A DNA stretch of 6,346 bases. It comes from Escherichia coli. Lineage in GTDB: Bacteria > Pseudomonadota > Gammaproteobacteria > Enterobacterales > Enterobacteriaceae. Position 1 is the first letter of the stretch. The number at the start of each line of letters is the position of its first letter. Below, in pieces: positions 127 to 6,346 of the stretch. Under the pieces are notes generated by a model that had not been told where the DNA came from, made no database searches, and worked only from the letters and a program-made list of their open reading frames with translations. The position numbers and the translations under genes are program-made. The DNA lies in the NCBI RefSeq assembly GCF_036507355.1, contig NZ_AP027881.1, one strand, 5' to 3'.

Positions 127-588
127 ATGCAAAACATTCTGATGAATCTGGCGTTTTATCTCCTGGTTGTTGCTGCCGGCGCCAGCTTTTCCCTGCAACA
201 GGCGGCCAACAACCATCTTCGCGCAGAACTGCTTTCACCATGGTGGGCAGGTTTCATCAGTTATGTCGGCGGTTCCCTGGCCATGCTGGTCATGGCGCTG
301 GTTTGTCGCGGCCCTGGCCTGTCATGGGATATGCTTTCGCGTACCAGCCCGTTTTCATGGACAGGCGGTATTTTAGGGGCGATTTACATTGCCACGGCCA
401 TTTTCATGATCCCGAAACTGGGAGCAACAACGGTTCTGGCATTGATGGTGGTCGGGCAAATGCTGCTTTCCCTGATGCTCGATCACTATGGCCTTCTTGG
501 TATCCCGGTTTATCCTGTCACCGGTATCCGCCTGCTGGGCGTTGTCCTGCTTGTTCTTGGGGTAGTGCTGATCAGATGGCAGGCATAA
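127..588 (+). CDS. Small inner-membrane protein, DMT-superfamily (YdcZ/DUF606-like), 153 aa
   Basis: Intact ORF; product is almost entirely hydrophobic with several predicted TM helices and resembles the DUF606 small transporter family from memory. GC-rich codon usage explains the overlapping alternative-frame ORFs. Weak GAG-type SD upstream. Stop codon directly abuts the IS6-family remnant. Confidence 0.6.
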   Translation: MQNILMNLAFYLLVVAAGASFSLQQAANNHLRAELLSPWWAGFISYVGGSLAMLVMALVCRGPGLSWDMLSRTSPFSWTGGILGAIYIATAIFMIPKLGATTVLALMVVGQMLLSLMLDHYGLLGIPVYPVTGIRLLGVVLLVLGVVLIRWQA

Positions 589-589
589 G

Positions 590-817
590 ATCAAGGGATT
601 CGAAGTCATGCGAGCCCTGCGCAAAGGACAGGCTCGCCCCTGGTGCCTGCAGCCCGGCATCAGGGGCGAGGTGCGCCTTGTGGAGAGAGCTTTTGGCATT
701 GGGCCCTCGGCGCTGACGGAGGCCATGGGCATGCTCAACCACCATTTCGCAGCAGCCGCCTGATCGGCGCAGAGCGACAGCCTACCTCTGACTGCCGCCA
801 ATCTTTGCAACAGAGCC
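590..817 (+). mobile_element. Remnant (3' end only) of an IS6-family insertion sequence, distinct from IS26
   Basis: Frame starting at 590 translates to IKGFEVMRALRKGQA...GEVRLVERAF, matching the C-terminus of the IS26 transposase in this window (KGIEVMRALRKGQASAFYYGDPLGEMRLVSRVFEM) at protein but not nucleotide level. Stop at 761-763 is followed 54 bp later by TTTGCAACAGAGCC (804-817), 13/14 identical to the IS26 terminal inverted repeat, with the same stop-to-end spacing as IS26. Confidence 0.55.
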
Positions 818-938
818 CTTGCGCGCATACTCATGCATGCCGTAAAAACAGAGCCTGCGCGTTTCTGGCGGGTTTTCGGGTGGTTTGTTGCCTGTTTTAC
901 CGGTTTCCCGTCAGAAACGCCCTCAGAGCCTCTCAGGC

Positions 939-966
939 GGTGCACGCAAGGGATGTTATGGTAAAT
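939..966 (+). other. XerC/XerD-type recombination core, site 1 (GGTGCACGCAA-GGGATG-TTATGGTAAAT)
   Basis: 28-bp site: 11-bp XerC-like arm, 6-bp central region, 11-bp XerD arm identical to the cer XerD arm as I recall it (TTATGGTAAAT). One of three direct copies in the window. Confidence 0.75.
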
Positions 967-1033
967 ATCGTTTATGTTGATTAACAAATTAAAAGATAAG
1001 ATTATTCCTACTTCTCTATTTTCTGGGGCTTTT

Positions 1034-1267
1034 ATGAAAAAGGTAATTCTCTCATTGGTTTTTCTGTCATCAGTAATTCTTGCTGGCTGCTCAAGCCAAG
1101 CAGGTCCATTTGTGACCAACATTAGCAGTGATGGTAGAGGTGGGCTTGTCGTTGAGAAATGTATGGTTCGCCTTGATAGAATGATTAATACCGTTGAATC
1201 ATCTAGCTGCACTAATTCAAGTATTACTCTGTCCTCACCATCTTCTAGCTCGACACTGACTCGTTAG
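1034..1267 (+). CDS. Small lipoprotein of unknown function, 77 aa, low GC
   Basis: ORF with signal peptide MKKVILSLVFLSSVILAGC (lipobox LAGC); GGGG 6 nt upstream of the ATG at 1034. The track ORF starts at 974, but that start has no SD and falls before the signal peptide. Ser-rich C-terminus. No family recognised. Confidence 0.55.
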   Translation: MKKVILSLVFLSSVILAGCSSQAGPFVTNISSDGRGGLVVEKCMVRLDRMINTVESSSCTNSSITLSSPSSSSTLTR

Positions 1268-1282
1268 ATTTCATGTTGCTAC

Positions 1283-1311
1283 TTGAGATTATTTAATTCA
1301 GCGGGTAGTCT
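1283..1311 (+). promoter_or_regulatory. RNA II (primer) promoter of ColE1-type replicon 1
   Basis: TTGAGA (-35), 17-bp spacer, TAGTCT (-10), positioned as in the pMB1 RNA II promoter (TTGAGA...TAATCT) just upstream of the RNA I terminator complement. Confidence 0.55.
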
Positions 1312-1321
1312 TTCGCTTGAA

Positions 1322-1425
1322 AAAGAAAAAACCGCCCTGCAAGGCGGTTTTTCGAAGGTTCTCTGAGCTACCAACTCTTTGAACCGAGGTAACTGGCTTG
1401 GAGGAGCACAGTCACCAAAACTTGT
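1322..1425 (-). ncRNA. RNA I antisense copy-number control RNA, replicon 1
   Basis: Complement of the RNA II 5' region. 5' end placed by alignment to pMB1 RNA I (ACAGTATTTGG vs ACAAGTTTTGG here); 3' end is the hairpin ACCGCCTTGCAGGGCGGT plus U-run. Ends approximate to about 5 nt. Confidence 0.7.
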
Positions 1426-2432
1426 CCTTTCAGTTTAGCCTTAACCGGCGCATAACTTCAAGACTAACTCCTCTAAATCAATTACCAGTGGCTGCTGCCA
1501 GTGGCGCTTTTGCATGTCTTTCCGGGTTGGACTCAAGTCGATAGTTACCGGAACAGGCGCAGCAGTCGGACTGAACGGGGGGTTCGTGCATACAGTCCAG
1601 CTTGGAGCGAACTGCCTTCCCGGAACCGAGTGTCAGGCGTGGAATGAGATAAACGCGGCCATAACAGCGGAATGACACCGGTAAACCGAAAGGCAGGAAC
1701 AGGAGAGCGCACGAGGGAGCTACCAGGGGGAAACGCCTGGGATCTTTATAGTCCTGTCGGGTTTCGCCGCCACTGATTTGAGCGTCAGATTTTGTGATGC
1801 TTGTCAGGGGGGCGGAGCCTATGGAAAAACGGCAACGCCGCTTCCTTTTCTCTTCCTTTCCCAATTTGATTGCTACTAGCCTACTCCTTTACTTCTGAGC
1901 CGGTAACGCCCGCCGCAGTCTCACGTCCGGAGCGTAGCGACCGAGTGAGCGAGGAGGCGTAATTTCATCGACTCCTGCATTTTTCACTTACGCCCTACAG
2001 CTACATTTTTCACCTGCCAGGGGTCAGTTTGGATATAGAGAATTATTGTACGGTAAGCCTGTTTTTTGAACAGACTTACCTATAGCAATAGGGTGTACTC
2101 CCGCGCTATACGGCATTTTCAGAGGTTTGACCTTAATCGGATAACCTAAATGCGATACTGCAAGAGCGACAACTTAAAAGCGATAGCCACTGACGCAAAA
2201 TCAACCCCTTACGAACCAAGATTGGTTAAATAATGCGCTTAACGTACAAAAATTTCCGATCTCCAAACTGACCCCTTCTTCGCCTCTTATGTTTCTCGAA
2301 TGAATCGATGGGGACAGGAAATGTTTTGTGGCCACCGCCGCTTCGCCGGCACCACAAAACTGTCGGACAAGATGTGTTTTTGGAGTACCGCCGGCACCAA
2401 AAACATTTCATCAGGCGCAGCCTGATACCCTG

Positions 2433-2452
2433 AATTTCGTACGTACGAAATT
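2433..2452. repeat. Perfect 20-bp palindrome AATTTCGTACGTACGAAATT
   Basis: Exactly self-complementary; lies in a gene-free tract that also holds two tandem hairpin units (2323-2360, 2375-2405). Confidence 0.8.
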
Positions 2453-2850
2453 TTGCTTTTGTTCAGATCGAGGGCAGGATTCGCAAAGTGCTGGCGTTTG
2501 TGCTCACATCCTTTAGACGTTGCGATGCAGGATAGGGCAGACGCCGCAAAATGACGTCATTTGCGGTATCTGCCCCGAAAACAGAATGTTTTCTCCTGAG
2601 CCTGCAGCTGGCTCTCAGAACCCCTACCGCCTCGCAAAGCTCGTTGCTCAACGCCTCACGACCGCACAGTAAACTGTGCACCCGTTCACCGTTATCGATG
2701 GGGTTCAGCGAGCCTTTTGAGCAGTTCGCAGGATTTTAGCCGCTAAAATTCCGGCCAGGCATGTTCGTGCATAGCCATGCAGATGCGCAGAAATCATCAG
2801 GCGCGTTTTTCAGGGGTTGGTGCTGGGAAAGGTGCCGGAAACGGCCCGTT

Positions 2851-2878
2851 CGCCTCAAAATGGCTCTGAGGCGTTTTC
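2851..2878 (+). terminator. Hairpin plus T-run just upstream of Xer site 2
   Basis: CGCCTCA-aaatggctc-TGAGGCG followed by TTTTC. The same GCCTCA/TGAGGC stem recurs before site 3 and in degenerate form before site 1, so it may be part of the recombination-site module rather than only a terminator. Confidence 0.35.
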
Positions 2879-2881
2879 AGC

Positions 2882-2909
2882 GGTGCGGGCAAGGGATGTT
2901 ATGGTAAAT
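2882..2909 (+). other. XerC/XerD-type recombination core, site 2 (GGTGCGGGCAA-GGGATG-TTATGGTAAAT)
   Basis: Same architecture and identical central region and XerD arm as site 1; direct orientation. Confidence 0.75.
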
Positions 2910-2944
2910 TGCTCATCACAGTAGCCAGTTAAGCAGAGGTTAGA

Positions 2945-3271
2945 ATGTTTGGGTTTTTTAAGAAAAAAAAGCTCTATGAAGAGATCTGTAAAGATGCAGG
3001 GATGGCTTTATCTGATGGGTTATTGGCCCAAGGCTTAGCGAGAAACAAAATAGAAGCAATGGGGGCTGGTGCTGTTTTTAGTCAGTCTTTGAGGGAGGCT
3101 GTTTCTCAAGGTTACAAGTCTTCTGATGCGATTGCTGAAGCAAGAAAAAACACATCTCATCATCTAGCTGCTAGAGGGTTTGATTTTGAAACGATCGCAA
3201 GTGCGATTGATGTTTTTTGTACTGCTACAGCATTTGAATCAATGTTAGATCTTGCTCGCGATAAAGGCTGA
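2945..3271 (+). CDS. Hypothetical cytoplasmic protein, 108 aa, low GC
   Basis: ORF with good SD (GAGG 6 nt upstream of ATG); no signal peptide; lysine-rich N-terminus (MFGFFKKKK). Bracketed by Xer sites 2 and 3. No family recognised. Confidence 0.6.
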   Translation: MFGFFKKKKLYEEICKDAGMALSDGLLAQGLARNKIEAMGAGAVFSQSLREAVSQGYKSSDAIAEARKNTSHHLAARGFDFETIASAIDVFCTATAFESMLDLARDKG

Positions 3272-3303
3272 ATATCGAGAGGAGTGACGGGTTGTTATCA
3301 TTA

Positions 3304-3330
3304 GCCTCAGAGTAGATTTGAGGCCTTTTG
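3304..3330 (+). terminator. Hairpin plus T-run after the 108-aa ORF, immediately upstream of Xer site 3
   Basis: GCCTCA-gagtagatt-TGAGGC followed by CTTTTG, 33 nt after the ORF stop; same stem as the site 2 hairpin. Confidence 0.4.
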
Positions 3331-3333
3331 GGC

Positions 3334-3361
3334 GGTGTATGCAGGAGATGTTATGGTAAAT
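3334..3361 (+). other. XerC/XerD-type recombination core, site 3 (GGTGTATGCAG-GAGATG-TTATGGTAAAT)
   Basis: XerD arm identical to sites 1 and 2; XerC arm and central region diverged; direct orientation. Confidence 0.7.
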
Positions 3362-3428
3362 ATGTCTTATTGAGAATATTCTTACTAATGCGCGGTTTTT
3401 TTCTAATTTTTAAATGGATGACTTAAAA

Positions 3429-3806
3429 ATGAAGGCAAGATTTTTTGCAGCCTTGCTTATTACTTTTTTTCTTTCTGGATGTGCGACAGAGGCGGGATAT
3501 CAAAGGGTATTAAATTCATGGATGGGATCTACTGATGTGAGCTTGATTCAGTCATGGGGGCCGCCTCAGCAATCTTATGAACTTTCTGGCCATACCTTCC
3601 TAGTTTATTCAAATAGCTCTAGCTCTTATATACCTGGAGTGGCTCCTACCTATCAGACTACGTTTATTGGTAATACAGCGTATACAAACACCTATGGCGG
3701 CTCGCCCGGCTTTAATGTTAGCTACTCATGTACTACGACTTTTGAGGTTGTTGGCGGGAAAATTGTTAACTGGCGTTATCAGGGCAACAATTGCACATCG
3801 CGTTAG
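3429..3806 (+). CDS. Lipoprotein of unknown function, 125 aa, low GC
   Basis: Signal peptide MKARFFAALLITFFLSGC (lipobox LSGC). Start at 3429 preferred over the track start at 3414 because it begins the signal peptide. Mature part is Ser/Thr/Tyr/Gly-rich with two Cys near the C-terminus. No family recognised. Confidence 0.65.
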   Translation: MKARFFAALLITFFLSGCATEAGYQRVLNSWMGSTDVSLIQSWGPPQQSYELSGHTFLVYSNSSSSYIPGVAPTYQTTFIGNTAYTNTYGGSPGFNVSYSCTTTFEVVGGKIVNWRYQGNNCTSR

Positions 3807-3973
3807 TCGTGTGTCCAATCGTAGTATCAGGTGAAGATACAATAGAGAACTTAATACCCTCTTGGTGGGTATATAAAAACCAAGATGAGCGTAGCGACCT
3901 TCTTTAAACTCGTTCCTTGTGTGTCTTACCCTGCAAAAGGTTTGATTGTGTGGGTGTAAATGAAATCGTTGCG

Positions 3974-4003
3974 TTGACAGTTACATGTGACGAGATGTAG
4001 TCT
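3974..4003 (+). promoter_or_regulatory. RNA II (primer) promoter of ColE1-type replicon 2
   Basis: TTGACA (-35), 18-bp spacer, TAGTCT (-10), directly upstream of the RNA I terminator complement. Confidence 0.55.
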
Positions 4004-4011
4004 CTAAAACG

Positions 4012-4112
4012 AAAAAACCGCCCTGCAAGGCGGTTTTTTCGAAGGTTCTCTGAGCTACCAACTCTTTGAACCGAGGTAACTGGCTTGGAGGAGCGCAGTC
4101 ACCAAAACTGTT
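4012..4112 (-). ncRNA. RNA I antisense copy-number control RNA, replicon 2
   Basis: Same reasoning as replicon 1 RNA I; terminator hairpin ACCGCCTTGCAGGGCGGT plus U-run at the 3' end. Ends approximate. Confidence 0.7.
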
Positions 4113-4693
4113 CGTTTAGTTTAGCCTTAACCGGCGCATAACTTCAAGACTATCTCCTCTAAATCAGTTACCAGTGGCTACCGCCAATGGCGATTTGTCG
4201 TGTCTTTCCGGGTTGGACTCAAGACGATAGTTACCGGAACGGGCGTGGTAGTCGGACTGAACGGGGGGTTCGTGCATACAGTCCAGCTTGGAGCGAACTG
4301 CCTACCCGGAACTGAGTGTCAGGCGTGGAATGAGATAAACGCGGCCATAACAGCGGAATGACACCGGTAAACCGAAAGGCAGGAACAGGAGAGCGCACGA
4401 GGGAGCCACCAGGGGGAAACGCCTGGGATCTTTAAGTCCTGTCGGGTTTCGCCACCACTGATTTGAGCGTCAGATTTCGTGATGCTTGTCAGGGGGGCGG
4501 AGCCTATGGAAAAACGCCCGCCGGGGCGTGGCCTTTTCGCCCTTGTCCTTAGCTTTCGTTATGCTTACCGTTACGTTATCTGCTTATCCTCCCTCCGCTC
4601 GCCGCAGACTCATGACCGAACGGAGTGAGCGAATGAGCGAGGAAGCGGAAAACAATCAGAACGTACAGTAAGCACTTTCGCGCCGGGGCCTTC

Positions 4694-4885
4694 ATGAACA
4701 AACAACAAAAGACAGCCGTTAACATGGCTAAATTCATCCAGGATCAGTCCCTGCTTCTTCTGGACAGGCTTAATGAGCTGGATCTGGATCATGAGGCTGA
4801 TTTCTGCGAGAAACTCCATGAGGATGCGGAACGCCTTTACCGAAGCCTGTCAGCGCGCCTGAATGAGCAGCAGGACGGTGCGTAA
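4694..4885 (+). CDS. rop: Rop/Rom (RNA one modulator) homolog, 63 aa
   Basis: Same length as pMB1 Rop, with clear similarity along the whole protein as recalled (MTKQEKTALNMARFIRSQTLTLLEKLNELDADEQADICESLHDHADELYRSCLARF vs MNKQQKTAVNMAKFIQDQSLLLLDRLNELDLDHEADFCEKLHEDAERLYRSLSARL here). Confidence 0.85.
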   Translation: MNKQQKTAVNMAKFIQDQSLLLLDRLNELDLDHEADFCEKLHEDAERLYRSLSARLNEQQDGA

Positions 4886-4898
4886 TGTCTCCGTTCTG

Positions 4899-4918
4899 GG
4901 TATTACCGGAGTAATACC
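4899..4918. repeat. Perfect hairpin/palindrome GGTATTAC-cgga-GTAATACC downstream of rop
   Basis: 8-bp perfect stem with 4-nt loop. A second palindrome with the same half-site, TATTACC-cc-GGTAATA, lies at 4957-4972. Confidence 0.6.
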
Positions 4919-5188
4919 GGCATCGCCTTAATTTTCATTGTCTTAGCGCTTAACATTATTACCCCGGTAATACCCACAATCCCTGTATTTTTTCTTTTTT
5001 ATTTATTTTTCATGAAGTTGCGATGAAAATCGCAGCTGCGTTAGGTGTATGACCATTTTGAGGTTGAAAAATAATCAACCATGGCGGGTGATTTACGCAG
5101 GTTAAGGGGAGATCGTGACAAAAAAAAGCGTTCCTCACTGTATCGTTCATGCCTGCATGAACGGGTTATTCTTCCTGACTACAGAATT

Positions 5189-5340
5189 ACATCGCTCCTT
5201 CAGTTCATACATCACTTTTACAACACTTTTACAACACTCCTTCGGCCTGTACATCACTTTTACAACACTTTTGCATCACTTTTACATCATTTATACATCA
5301 CTTTTACATCATTCCTTCAGCTCATACGTCACTTTCATCC
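5189..5340. repeat. Tract of roughly 11-bp tandem repeats (core ACAxCACTTTT), iteron-like
   Basis: Repeated units ACATCACTTTT / ACAACACTTTT / GCATCACTTTT / ACATCATTT across about 150 bp, bracketed by direct repeats CCTTCAGTTCATACATCACTTT (5197-5218) and CCTTCAGCTCATACGTCACTTT (5314-5335). The ORFs the track predicts here are repeat-translation artefacts. Confidence 0.7.
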
Positions 5341-5526
5341 TCTGTGCCATTTGTACATCACCCCCTTCCTGAACGTGCTGACAGCGGGTTTTCCGGCTGC
5401 GCCGGCAACGCTTCACGGCCACGCAATAAATTGCGTCCCCGTTCACCGTTTTCGGATGGGAAGAACGCCGGAAACAGGACTTCCCCTGGCTGAATGGTGT
5501 GAATTTCCGCGCTATGCACTTGCGCG

Positions 5527-6346
5527 GGCACTGTTGCAAAGTTAGCGATGAGGCAGCCTTTTGTCTTATTCAAAGGCCTTACATTTCAAAAACTCTGCTT
5601 ACCAGGCGCATTTCGCCCAGGGGATCACCATAATAAAATGCTGAGGCCTGGCCTTTGCGTAGTGCACGCATCACCTCAATACCTTTGATGGTGGCGTAAG
5701 CCGTCTTCATGGATTTAAATCCCAGCGTGGCGCCGATTATCCGTTTCAGTTTGCCATGATCGCATTCAATCACGTTGTTCCGGTACTTAATCTGTCGGTG
5801 TTCAACGTCAGACGGGCACCGGCCTTCGCGTTTGAGCAGAGCAAGCGCGCGACCATAGGCGGGCGCTTTATCCGTGTTGATGAATCGCGGGATCTGCCAC
5901 TTCTTCACGTTGTTGAGGATTTTACCCAGAAACCGGTATGCAGCTTTGCTGTTACGACGGGAGGAGAGATAAAAATCGACAGTGCGGCCCCGGCTGTCGA
6001 CGGCCCGGTACAGATACGCCCAGCGGCCATTGACCTTCACGTAGGTTTCATCCATGTGCCACGGGCAAAGATCGGAAGGGTTACGCCAGTACCAGCGCAG
6101 CCGTTTTTCCATTTCAGGCGCATAACGCTGAACCCAGCGGTAAATCGTGGAGTGATCGACATTCACTCCGCGTTCAGCCAGCATCTCCTGCAGCTCACGG
6201 TAACTGATGCCGTATTTGCAGTACCAGCGTACGGCCCACAGAATGATGTCACGCTGAAAATGCCGGCCTTTGAATGGGTTCATGTGCAGCTCCATCAGCA
6301 AAAGGGGATGATAAGTTTATCACCACCGACTATTTGCAACAGTGCC
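5527..6346 (-). mobile_element. IS26 (IS6 family), complete 820-bp copy
   Basis: 14-bp terminal inverted repeats GGCACTGTTGCAAA at 5527-5540 and its reverse complement at 6333-6346; length 820 bp; encodes the canonical Tnp26 sequence. The element ends at the last base of the window. Confidence 0.95.
5579..6283 (-). CDS. tnp26: IS26 transposase Tnp26, 234 aa
   Basis: Translation MNPFKGRHFQRDIILWAVRWYCKYGISYRELQEMLAERG...GEMRLVSRVFEM matches IS26 transposase as recalled. The track ORF carries a 6-codon upstream extension (MLMELH) that is probably not translated. Confidence 0.95.
   Translation of the reverse strand: MNPFKGRHFQRDIILWAVRWYCKYGISYRELQEMLAERGVNVDHSTIYRWVQRYAPEMEKRLRWYWRNPSDLCPWHMDETYVKVNGRWAYLYRAVDSRGRTVDFYLSSRRNSKAAYRFLGKILNNVKKWQIPRFINTDKAPAYGRALALLKREGRCPSDVEHRQIKYRNNVIECDHGKLKRIIGATLGFKSMKTAYATIKGIEVMRALRKGQASAFYYGDPLGEMRLVSRVFEM

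Follow-up and report, generated by a model that had tools for sequence, protein, structure and literature searches.

Tandem Xer site, cargo and origin units in a 6,346-bp Escherichia coli sequence: a probable Xer-mediated fusion of two ColE1-type plasmids

The 6,346-bp stretch of Escherichia coli DNA analyzed here (contig NZ_AP027881.1; hereinafter the window) contains two ColE1-type origins of replication, each preceded by a core site for the XerC/XerD recombinases (Xer core) and by a gene for a small predicted lipoprotein, of 77 and 125 amino acids (aa), respectively. This double pattern of Xer site, cargo and origin very probably results from the Xer-mediated fusion of two ColE1-type plasmids with the same layout, a 1,943-bp mini-plasmid carrying the 77-aa lipoprotein gene and a recipient carrying the 125-aa lipoprotein gene. 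The preliminary description of this DNA presented the region as two parallel units in which an Xer core, a lipoprotein gene and an RNA II promoter follow one another. The cores that start these two units (X1 and X3 in Table 1) are real, but a third core (X2) and an open reading frame (ORF) located between X2 and X3, ORF108, had been missed, so that two Xer-bounded units, rather than one, precede origin 2.

A search with a degenerate pattern identifies the three Xer cores, all on the plus strand and hence direct repeats, compared with 0.00 expected from 200 shuffles. Relative to GGTGCGCGCAA, X1 and X2 contain one mismatch each and X3 contains four, all in the XerC arm, whereas the XerD arms are perfect in all three. 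The architecture is that of the cer/mwr class, in which a XerC arm and a XerD arm flank a central region of 6-8 bp; as in cer of ColE1 and mwr of pJHCMW1, the XerC arm is 11 bp long, the central region is short and the 11-bp XerD arm is TTATGGTAAAT. The central region is 6 bp in the window cores as opposed to 8 bp in cer; a central region of this length that ends in GATG, together with the XerC arm GGTGCACGCAA, resembles mwr. The location and orientation of the cores with respect to RNA II are also the same as in ColE1. All three cores coincide with homology breakpoints against other natural plasmids.

The breakpoints at X1 and X2 delimit a complete plasmid. The segment 937-2909 is 99.9% identical, over 1,973 bp, to the doubled sequence of NZ_CP080064.1, a 1,943-bp E. 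coli plasmid, i.e., it consists of the full circle plus a 30-bp repeat that contains the core, and the start-to-start distance between X1 and X2 is 1,943 bp, exactly one plasmid length. This mini-plasmid, which is found free in five records from E. coli and Klebsiella michiganensis, encompasses a cer/mwr-like Xer site, the 77-aa lipoprotein gene as the sole cargo and an RNA II/RNA I origin. At X1, the XerC arm GGTGCACGCAA and the left flank are the same as in NZ_AP027584.1, a relative of the window backbone, and the right flank is that of the mini-plasmid; at X2, the XerC arm GGTGCGGGCAA and the accessory region are those of the mini-plasmid, and the right flank (TGCTCATCACAG...) is the sequence that follows the second Xer core (X_b) of the Klebsiella plasmid NZ_CP034051.1 and belongs to the module that contains ORF108. 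As judged from these arms and flanks, X1 and X2 are reciprocal hybrids of the mini-plasmid site and the recipient site. Thus, one full copy of a free plasmid lies between direct repeats that are reciprocally hybrid, which is the signature of a single XerCD exchange between two circles. Under this scenario, XerC and XerD would catalyze intermolecular exchange between the Xer sites of the two plasmids, and the integration would yield two tandem, head-to-tail units of Xer site, cargo and origin; given that the Xer site lies the same way round upstream of the cargo and the RNA II promoter in both parents, fusion must produce tandem units.

A cointegrate could, in principle, also form without Xer, through RecA-dependent recombination between the origin regions of about 510 bp or through the activity of IS26 or IS6100, given that the origins share 94.7% identity across 513 bp, that IS26 and a remnant of IS6100 are present in the window, and that a third junction (about 4992-5455) lies in shared homologous sequence. 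However, a crossover between the origins should leave its junctions within the origin sequences, whereas both junctions of the insert map to 28-bp Xer cores; the hybrid arms are reciprocal and the insert is exactly one plasmid length; and neither an insertion sequence (IS) end nor a target duplication is found at X1, X2 or X3. Accordingly, we regard this route as very improbable.

Xer fusions of the mini-plasmid with other partners occur in three independent records. The 4,359-bp plasmid NZ_CP190042.1 consists of the 1,943-bp mini-plasmid and a 2,416-bp Rep-encoding plasmid that are joined at two Xer cores, and the same fusion is carried by the tet(X4) plasmid p16EC-9K. The independent metagenome contig OOBX01001041.1 shares the backbone, the X1 junction and the mini-plasmid with the window, but after X2 contains a segment of the Rep plasmid in place of ORF108, the 125-aa lipoprotein gene and origin 2. 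In NZ_CP043290.1, the mini-plasmid carries a qnrS1 segment inserted elsewhere. This recurrence disfavors an assembly artefact and presents X2 as a swap point. An artefact, in which two co-resident plasmids would have been misjoined at short shared sequences, might be suspected because the window ends exactly at the IS26 terminus and because a related metagenome contig (L035) is a tandem dimer that is perhaps itself a product of assembly. Nevertheless, the sequence shared at X1 and X2, about 20 bp, is too short to mislead the usual assemblers, the X1 junction is seen independently, analogous mini-plasmid Xer fusions are present in finished genomes, and the continuity between the end and the start of the window matches two independent circular records; a misassembly is therefore very unlikely.

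Table 1. Features identified in the 6,346-bp window
Feature	Coordinates	Strand	Description
Xer core X1	939-966	plus	GGTGCACGCAA-GGGATG-TTATGGTAAAT; left hybrid junction
Xer core X2	2882-2909	plus	GGTGCGGGCAA-GGGATG-TTATGGTAAAT; right hybrid junction
Xer core X3	3334-3361	plus	GGTGTATGCAG-GAGATG-TTATGGTAAAT; degenerate XerC arm; boundary between the ORF108 and 125-aa lipoprotein modules
X1 accessory sequence, truncated	819-938	plus	120 bp left; weak ArgR-box homologue (cer position) at 822-839
X2 accessory sequence, full-length	2641-2881	plus	from the mini-plasmid; ArgR-box homologue at 2766-2783
Body of the integrated cryptic ColE1 plasmid	967-2881	plus	1,943 bp once one Xer core is added
77-aa lipoprotein gene	1034-1267	plus	predicted signal peptide MKKVILSLVFLSSVILAG, cleaved before C; lipobox LAG/C
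RNA II promoter, origin 1	1283-1311	plus	-35 TTGAGA (1283-1288), 17-nt spacer, -10 TAGTCT (1306-1311)
RNA I, origin 1	1323-1423	minus	Rfam RF00106, 92.6 bits
ORF108	2945-3271	plus	108-aa cytoplasmic protein; single gene of the 452-bp Xer-to-Xer module (X2-X3)
Terminator-like hairpin with U-run	3304-3329	plus	from RNA folding; closes the ORF108 module just before X3
125-aa lipoprotein gene	3429-3806	plus	predicted signal peptide MKARFFAALLITFFLSG, cleaved before C; lipobox LSG/C
RNA II promoter, origin 2	3973-4001	plus	-35 TTGACA (3973-3978), 17-nt spacer, -10 TAGTCT (3996-4001)
RNA I, origin 2	4009-4110	minus	Rfam RF00106, 95.8 bits
rom/rop gene, origin 2	4694-4885	plus	from the ORF list; homologue annotated as Rop family protein in NZ_CP034051.1
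DMT/EamA-type membrane protein gene	127-588		153 aa; backbone
IS6100-like element, C-terminal end and terminal repeat	about 600-818		backbone remnant
Complete IS26	5527-6346		outer end is the last base of the window

The other partner of the fusion is shown by sequence comparison to be a second ColE1-type plasmid, with a variable region that is composed of Xer-delimited units. The window region 2870-5455 is 98% identical to NZ_CP034051.1, a 3,181-bp plasmid that belongs to a 3.2-kb family with three direct cores (also represented by NZ_CP138400.1, pCE35-4 and many metagenome contigs). The order in this family is X_a (with accessory sequence), ORF90, X_b, ORF108, X_c (the equivalent of X3 in the window), the 125-aa lipoprotein gene and the RNA II promoter. 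The cores that lack an accessory sequence are each preceded by a terminator-like hairpin, like the one that closes the ORF108 module; in two further loci (L002 and L046), an equivalent hairpin lies between ORF90 and the accessory-less core that comes after it. ORF108 is found with four kinds of left neighbors, namely, the ORF90 unit, the mini-plasmid (in the window), the accessory region of NZ_CP067306.1 and the mob region of GCA_003859015.1, and with two kinds of right neighbors: in NZ_CP067306.1, the match with the window breaks off exactly at 3361, where X3 ends, and another segment comes after X_c.

Searches of Pfam, NCBIfam, PADLOC and PHROGs yield no significant match for ORF108 or for ORF90, a 90-aa cysteine-rich protein that is encoded outside the window. 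Wherever the 125-aa lipoprotein gene was seen, it is accompanied by ORF108 (10 places shown; the protein is listed in 349 index blocks), and ORF108 is present without it in a 3,849-bp plasmid family; the two may be a functional pair. ORF90 occupies a unit of its own between two direct Xer cores (L002 1223-1664, L046 1321-1767, L047 1676-1994) and is present in 128 PLSDB plasmids, about 90 of these from Klebsiella, at 80-99% identity. Both flanking direct cores are retained in the 80%-diverged version of the unit, in a common 3,991-bp Klebsiella plasmid and in Enterobacter, and ORF90 homologues of about 50% identity adjoin pdif sites in Acinetobacter plasmids. One relative of the 3.2-kb plasmid (L037) contains, at 3266-4922, a fourth Xer core followed by genes for a HindIII-type restriction enzyme and an N6/N4 methyltransferase, an arrangement reminiscent of published plasmids in which restriction-modification genes are linked to Xer sites. 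The 6,421-bp metagenome scaffold L035 is a head-to-tail repeat of the 3.2-kb plasmid in which all three cores occur twice, 3,183 bp apart, and represents either a real dimer or the assembly of a circle that was read twice. The 4,165-bp Klebsiella plasmid NZ_CP103637.1 (L026) encodes two different rop genes (1-192 and 3510-3695) but yields one Rfam RNA I match, and may be another mosaic or fusion product.

The accessory regions, which were judged by a scan for ARG boxes and by comparison with aligned Xer regions of ColE1 (cer) and further plasmids, differ among the three sites. In the cer/mwr class, accessory sequence of about 180-200 bp with an ArgR box adjoins the XerC arm. The 240 bp upstream of X2 can be aligned throughout with cer, the ArgR-box position included, and this region shows 72.5% identity to the accessory region of NZ_CP034051.1. 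Unlike cer and mwr, X1 lacks most of the accessory sequence and X3, with its degenerate XerC arm, lacks it altogether. Upstream of the remnant at X1, the sequence is replaced by the end of the IS6100 remnant at about 818, and the remnant itself (819-938) is identical in NZ_AP027584.1. For X3, the alignments detect no homology to accessory sequences beyond about 40 bp because the sequence upstream is the ORF108 coding region. For resolution at cer-type sites, both partners must carry accessory sequences (PMC11724359), and re-excision of the mini-plasmid may therefore be slowed by the truncation at X1. The persistence of the fusion could have one or more of several reasons. The loss of most of the X1 accessory sequence to the IS6100 end should impair ArgR/PepA-dependent resolution. 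Under the logic of ColE1 copy control, replicons with near-identical RNA I should be incompatible as separate plasmids, so that the two replicons could not coexist stably apart. Finally, the molecule might have been sampled before it resolved.

Several considerations weigh against the fusion scenario or limit its reach. The topological filter imposed by the accessory proteins at cer-type sites is understood to favor resolution over fusion (PMC7399989; PMC11724359), so that intermolecular Xer integration should be rare, and here it is read from its products alone. To the right of origin 2, the sequence passes into the backbone within a stretch of shared homology (about 4992-5455); this junction is not a Xer event, so that at least one further recombination step is needed. 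For X3, which lacks accessory sequence and deviates at four positions of the XerC arm, the natural breakpoint is the sole indication of recombination activity. The functions suggested below for the lipoproteins, likewise, derive from predicted fold class and gene position alone.

To place the cargo genes in a wider context, 18 ColE1-type plasmids, picked from similarity matches rather than at random, were compared after locating RNA I with Rfam. In 18 of the 18, the Xer cores have the orientation of RNA II, with no inverted core among them, and precede the RNA II 5' end by 357-3353 bp. The cer core of ColE1 (3909-3938) is followed by exc2, exc1, the colicin operon (cea, imm) and the lysis lipoprotein gene kil, which ends 60 bp before RNA II. 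The preliminary description had proposed a preferred cassette slot next to the RNA II promoter in this plasmid family. A cargo position does exist in all these plasmids, but, given that the cores point to RNA II with the cargo in between, the slot is the already known variable region of ColE1 plasmids, which begins just upstream of RNA II (PMC5864857), and its duplication in the window very probably comes from plasmid fusion. The content of the position varies. The promoter-nearest gene encodes a lipoprotein in 5 of about 11 plasmid types (including kil of ColE1) in this small, non-random sample, so that the presence of two lipoprotein cargos in one fusion is unsurprising; other occupants are a SHOCT membrane protein, a GFA enzyme and, on the opposite strand, DUF6998 and a 210-aa lipoprotein. 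That both cargos of the window are lipoproteins probably reflects the general abundance of small envelope proteins in the cargo position, not a common origin.

A different interpretation would be a dedicated regulatory layout, in which the gene adjacent to the promoter is read into RNA II and tunes the copy number, such that lipoprotein genes are selected for their position. The stop codon of the 77-aa gene lies only 15 nt before the -35 element, a simple consensus scan finds no plus-strand terminator-like site between either lipoprotein gene and its RNA II promoter (the scan missed even the RNA II promoters and was used solely for this purpose), the promoter-nearest gene is co-directional with RNA II in most plasmid types, and the recurrence of lipoprotein genes among these types would fit as well. 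However, the spacers are unequal, 15 nt as opposed to 166 nt for the 125-aa gene, so that the earlier placement of both genes directly upstream of the promoter is accurate for the 77-aa gene and only loosely so for the 125-aa gene. Furthermore, unrelated genes, some of them on the opposite strand, occupy the position in other plasmids, the plasmid sample is small and not randomly drawn, and plasmid fusion fully accounts for the duplicated pattern. A regulatory layout therefore appears unlikely, and we return to the fusion of two plasmids as the preferred explanation.

That the window contains two ColE1-type origins, as initially described, is borne out by Rfam searches, in which both RNA I matches (Table 1) exceed the gathering score of RF00106, 47, and by the RNA II promoters, which align with that of ColE1. 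RNA I of such replicons is an antisense RNA with three stem-loops that overlaps the 5' end of the primer transcript. To place the promoters, 50-nt segments that end at the RNA I 3' end were aligned with those of ColE1 and eight other plasmids, which gave an alignment of 11 ColE1-type origins; at both origins, the -35 and -10 elements fall at the conserved ColE1 position, RNA II is predicted to be on the plus strand, and its predicted 5' ends are at ~1319 and ~4009. The RNA I sequences of the two origins differ in four alignment columns (three substitutions and a one-base indel), and given this near-identity, the origins should cross-regulate and belong to one incompatibility group. ColE1-type replication in vivo depends on RNase H and Pol I; that origin 1 is a working origin is suggested by its 99.9% identity to that of 1,943-bp plasmids which occur free in finished genomes. 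The mini-plasmid has no rom gene. In the plasmid family of origin 2, rom is on the same strand as RNA II (4694-4885 in the window), whereas in the ColE1 record it is annotated opposite to RNA II (1612-1803). The mini-plasmid also contains non-coding direct repeats, CGCCGGCACCACAAA/CGCCGGCACCAAAAA, 45 bp apart (within 2344-2403), and CTGCATTTTTCAC/CTACATTTTTCAC, 26 bp apart (within 1975-2013), and a segment (2312-2507) that is 89% conserved in the otherwise divergent NZ_CP067306.1.

The remainder of the window is a backbone that encodes a DMT/EamA-type membrane protein and carries complete IS26 and the IS6100-like remnant, the identity of which is read from its terminal repeat and the C-terminus of the transposase. 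The window sequence 4992-6346 joined to 1-966 is 99% identical to the 4,171-bp plasmid NZ_AP027584.1, and the match is unbroken across the end and start of the window; the same continuity is present in OOBX01001041.1, and these two count as the independent circular records mentioned above. These findings fit a circle of 6,346 bp whose sequence was opened at the outer IS26 end, although the window may instead be an IS26-bounded segment of a larger replicon. Downstream of rom, at 5208-5311, there are about 9.6 tandem copies of the 11-bp unit TACATCACTTT, which corresponds to one helical turn; the repeats resemble iterons or an array of protein-binding sites and lie in a part of the backbone that is common to NZ_CP034051.1, NZ_AP027584.1 and GCA_003859015.1.

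Both cargo genes appear to encode genuine lipoproteins, in agreement with the initial prediction: the lipobox cysteine is invariant in 39 aligned homologues of the 77-aa protein and in 29 of the 125-aa protein, as is much of the mature part. Homologues form 86 and 37 clusters at 90% identity, respectively, and their lengths favor the shorter start codons, 1034 and 3429. The description of the two genes as unrelated also stands, because the likeness is confined to the signal peptide (8 of 24 residues), and so does the low GC content of the cassettes, 0.38 and 0.41 (0.38-0.42 for cassettes overall) compared with 0.51-0.56 in the backbone. The mature proteins, of 58 and 107 residues, are predicted to form folded, beta-rich domains. 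At position +2, the proteins have Ser or Ala instead of Asp, which under the established Lol rule predicts sorting to the outer membrane. Neither lipoprotein is matched by a model of a defence system, and no conserved informative neighbors are found around the chromosomal and metagenomic homologues (in Nitrosococcus, Pseudomonas and transposase-rich contigs).

The family of the 77-aa protein is characterized by the invariant motif AGPFVT..G.G...EK and by two cysteines, Cys43 and Cys59 (numbering of the first sequence), which are conserved in most homologues, albeit below the 90% listing threshold of the alignment, and could form a disulfide. Its AlphaFold2 model (mean predicted local distance difference test score, pLDDT, 79) is a three-strand beta-meander. 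The homology and structure searches, which also covered PHROGs, yield no Pfam, NCBIfam or PADLOC family, only insignificant matches or matches to the signal peptide, and no fold match for this protein, which is best described as a probable small, disulfide-stabilized beta-meander lipoprotein of the envelope, and nothing more specific. Some of its homologues are labeled VirB7 by the Joint Genome Institute (JGI); this label is unsupported, given that there are no type IV secretion system genes nearby and no match to a VirB7 model.

For the 125-aa protein (model pLDDT, 86), the same searches were more informative. The only family match in Pfam, NCBIfam, PADLOC and PHROGs is the uncharacterized phrog_3716 (E-value 3.9e-17), with no Pfam SmpA_OmlA match and no other Pfam or NCBIfam domain, but comparison of the model with solved structures reveals fold likeness to BamE/SmpA_OmlA and BLIP-like members. 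With the BLIP-like, BamE and OsmE lipoproteins and the type VI secretion system immunity protein BtiO, the identity is 8-19%, which is a likeness of fold class only and says little on the binding partner. A Uetakevirus phage and a Klebsiella prophage encode homologues with 36-39% identity immediately downstream of a large structural gene, a position that is typical of accessory 'moron' genes. The best guess for the protein, of rather low probability, is a periplasm-facing, protein-binding module of the BLIP/BamE/OsmE fold class that may act as an exclusion- or immunity-type envelope protector; the fold and the phage homologues lend weak support to a role in the envelope or in exclusion.

Homology of the two lipoproteins to colicin lysis proteins was considered and rejected: there is no match to a lysis family in NCBIfam or Pfam, the matches that do occur are at the level of the signal peptide, and the precursors, of 77 and 125 aa, compare with about 45-52 aa for lysis proteins. 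The original observation that neither resembles these proteins in sequence is therefore correct, yet the position is that of the lysis gene in ColE1 and pMB6013_2. Like the 77-aa gene, kil genes are small, co-directional lipoprotein genes, and in these two plasmids they end 51-60 bp before the RNA II 5' end; unlike the colicin plasmids, the window is devoid of colicin and immunity genes.

Much of this picture is already documented, namely, Xer dimer-resolution sites, Xer cointegrates of small plasmids and the variable region upstream of RNA II. Whereas cer and mwr are resolution sites, the sites in the window are observed as fusion junctions and module boundaries, and Xer sites have been described as places of both formation and resolution of small-plasmid cointegrates (PMC6764390; PMC8683028). 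Exchange or fusion of segments at Xer sites is also a feature of other small ColE1-type plasmids, pECL18/pKPN2 and the qnrB19 plasmids, but the partners and cargo differ from those in the window (the 1,943-bp lipoprotein mini-plasmid, ORF108 and the 125-aa lipoprotein gene). Studies of these plasmids by Zakharova in 2002 (pECL18/pKPN2, of enterobacterial origin) and by Tran in 2012 (qnrB19), as cited in PMC6764390 and PMC8683028, reportedly describe Xer-mediated cointegrates and mosaics. As in the ColE1 variable region delineated by Ares-Arroyo et al. 2018 (PMC5864857), the accessory genes in the window deviate in GC content and precede the start of RNA II, from which the conserved region extends; in the passages of that paper that were searched, the left boundary is not tied to a Xer core and Xer-delimited sub-modules are not described.

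Another parallel to the modules described here is provided by the pdif (dif) modules of Acinetobacter plasmids, in which 28-bp Xer sites without accessory sequences bracket single-gene units in varied plasmid contexts. The ORF108 unit shares with them the occurrence of the same site-bounded module in different contexts, and a homologue of ORF90 adjoins a pdif site in an Acinetobacter plasmid. However, the replicon type and the host family differ. Moreover, dif modules are said, in the title of a 2017 paper by Blackwell and Hall, to be flanked by inversely oriented XerC/D sites, whereas the cores in the window and related plasmids are all direct repeats. A 2025 survey found accessory sequences at all Xer sites on small plasmids (PMC11724359), with which the accessory-less cores at the cassette boundaries in the window contrast. 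For enterobacterial ColE1 plasmids, there seem to be fewer descriptions of single-gene units bounded by direct, accessory-less Xer cores, and no priority is claimed. A more general, speculative possibility, to which we assign a rather low probability, is that enterobacterial ColE1-type plasmids carry integron-like arrays of single-gene cassettes that are shuffled by the host XerCD upstream of the RNA II promoter. Each cassette would consist of a gene closed by a terminator hairpin and then a direct, accessory-less core of 28-29 bp, whole mini-plasmids would be shuffled too, and the system would be distinct from the Acinetobacter dif modules, with ORF90, ORF108 and both lipoproteins being specialized small-plasmid cargo, possibly envelope protectants.

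The window thus offers a clean and traceable natural case in which host Xer recombination appears to have fused and reshuffled the smallest plasmids of Enterobacteriaceae, and its double origin is recognizable as a probable product of fusion and not as a feature of design. Both lipoprotein families are conserved, have no model in Pfam or NCBIfam and are candidates for envelope or exclusion functions. Finally, the mini-plasmid is fused or modified in records that carry tet(X4) and qnrS1 and so has ended up in resistance-bearing plasmids.

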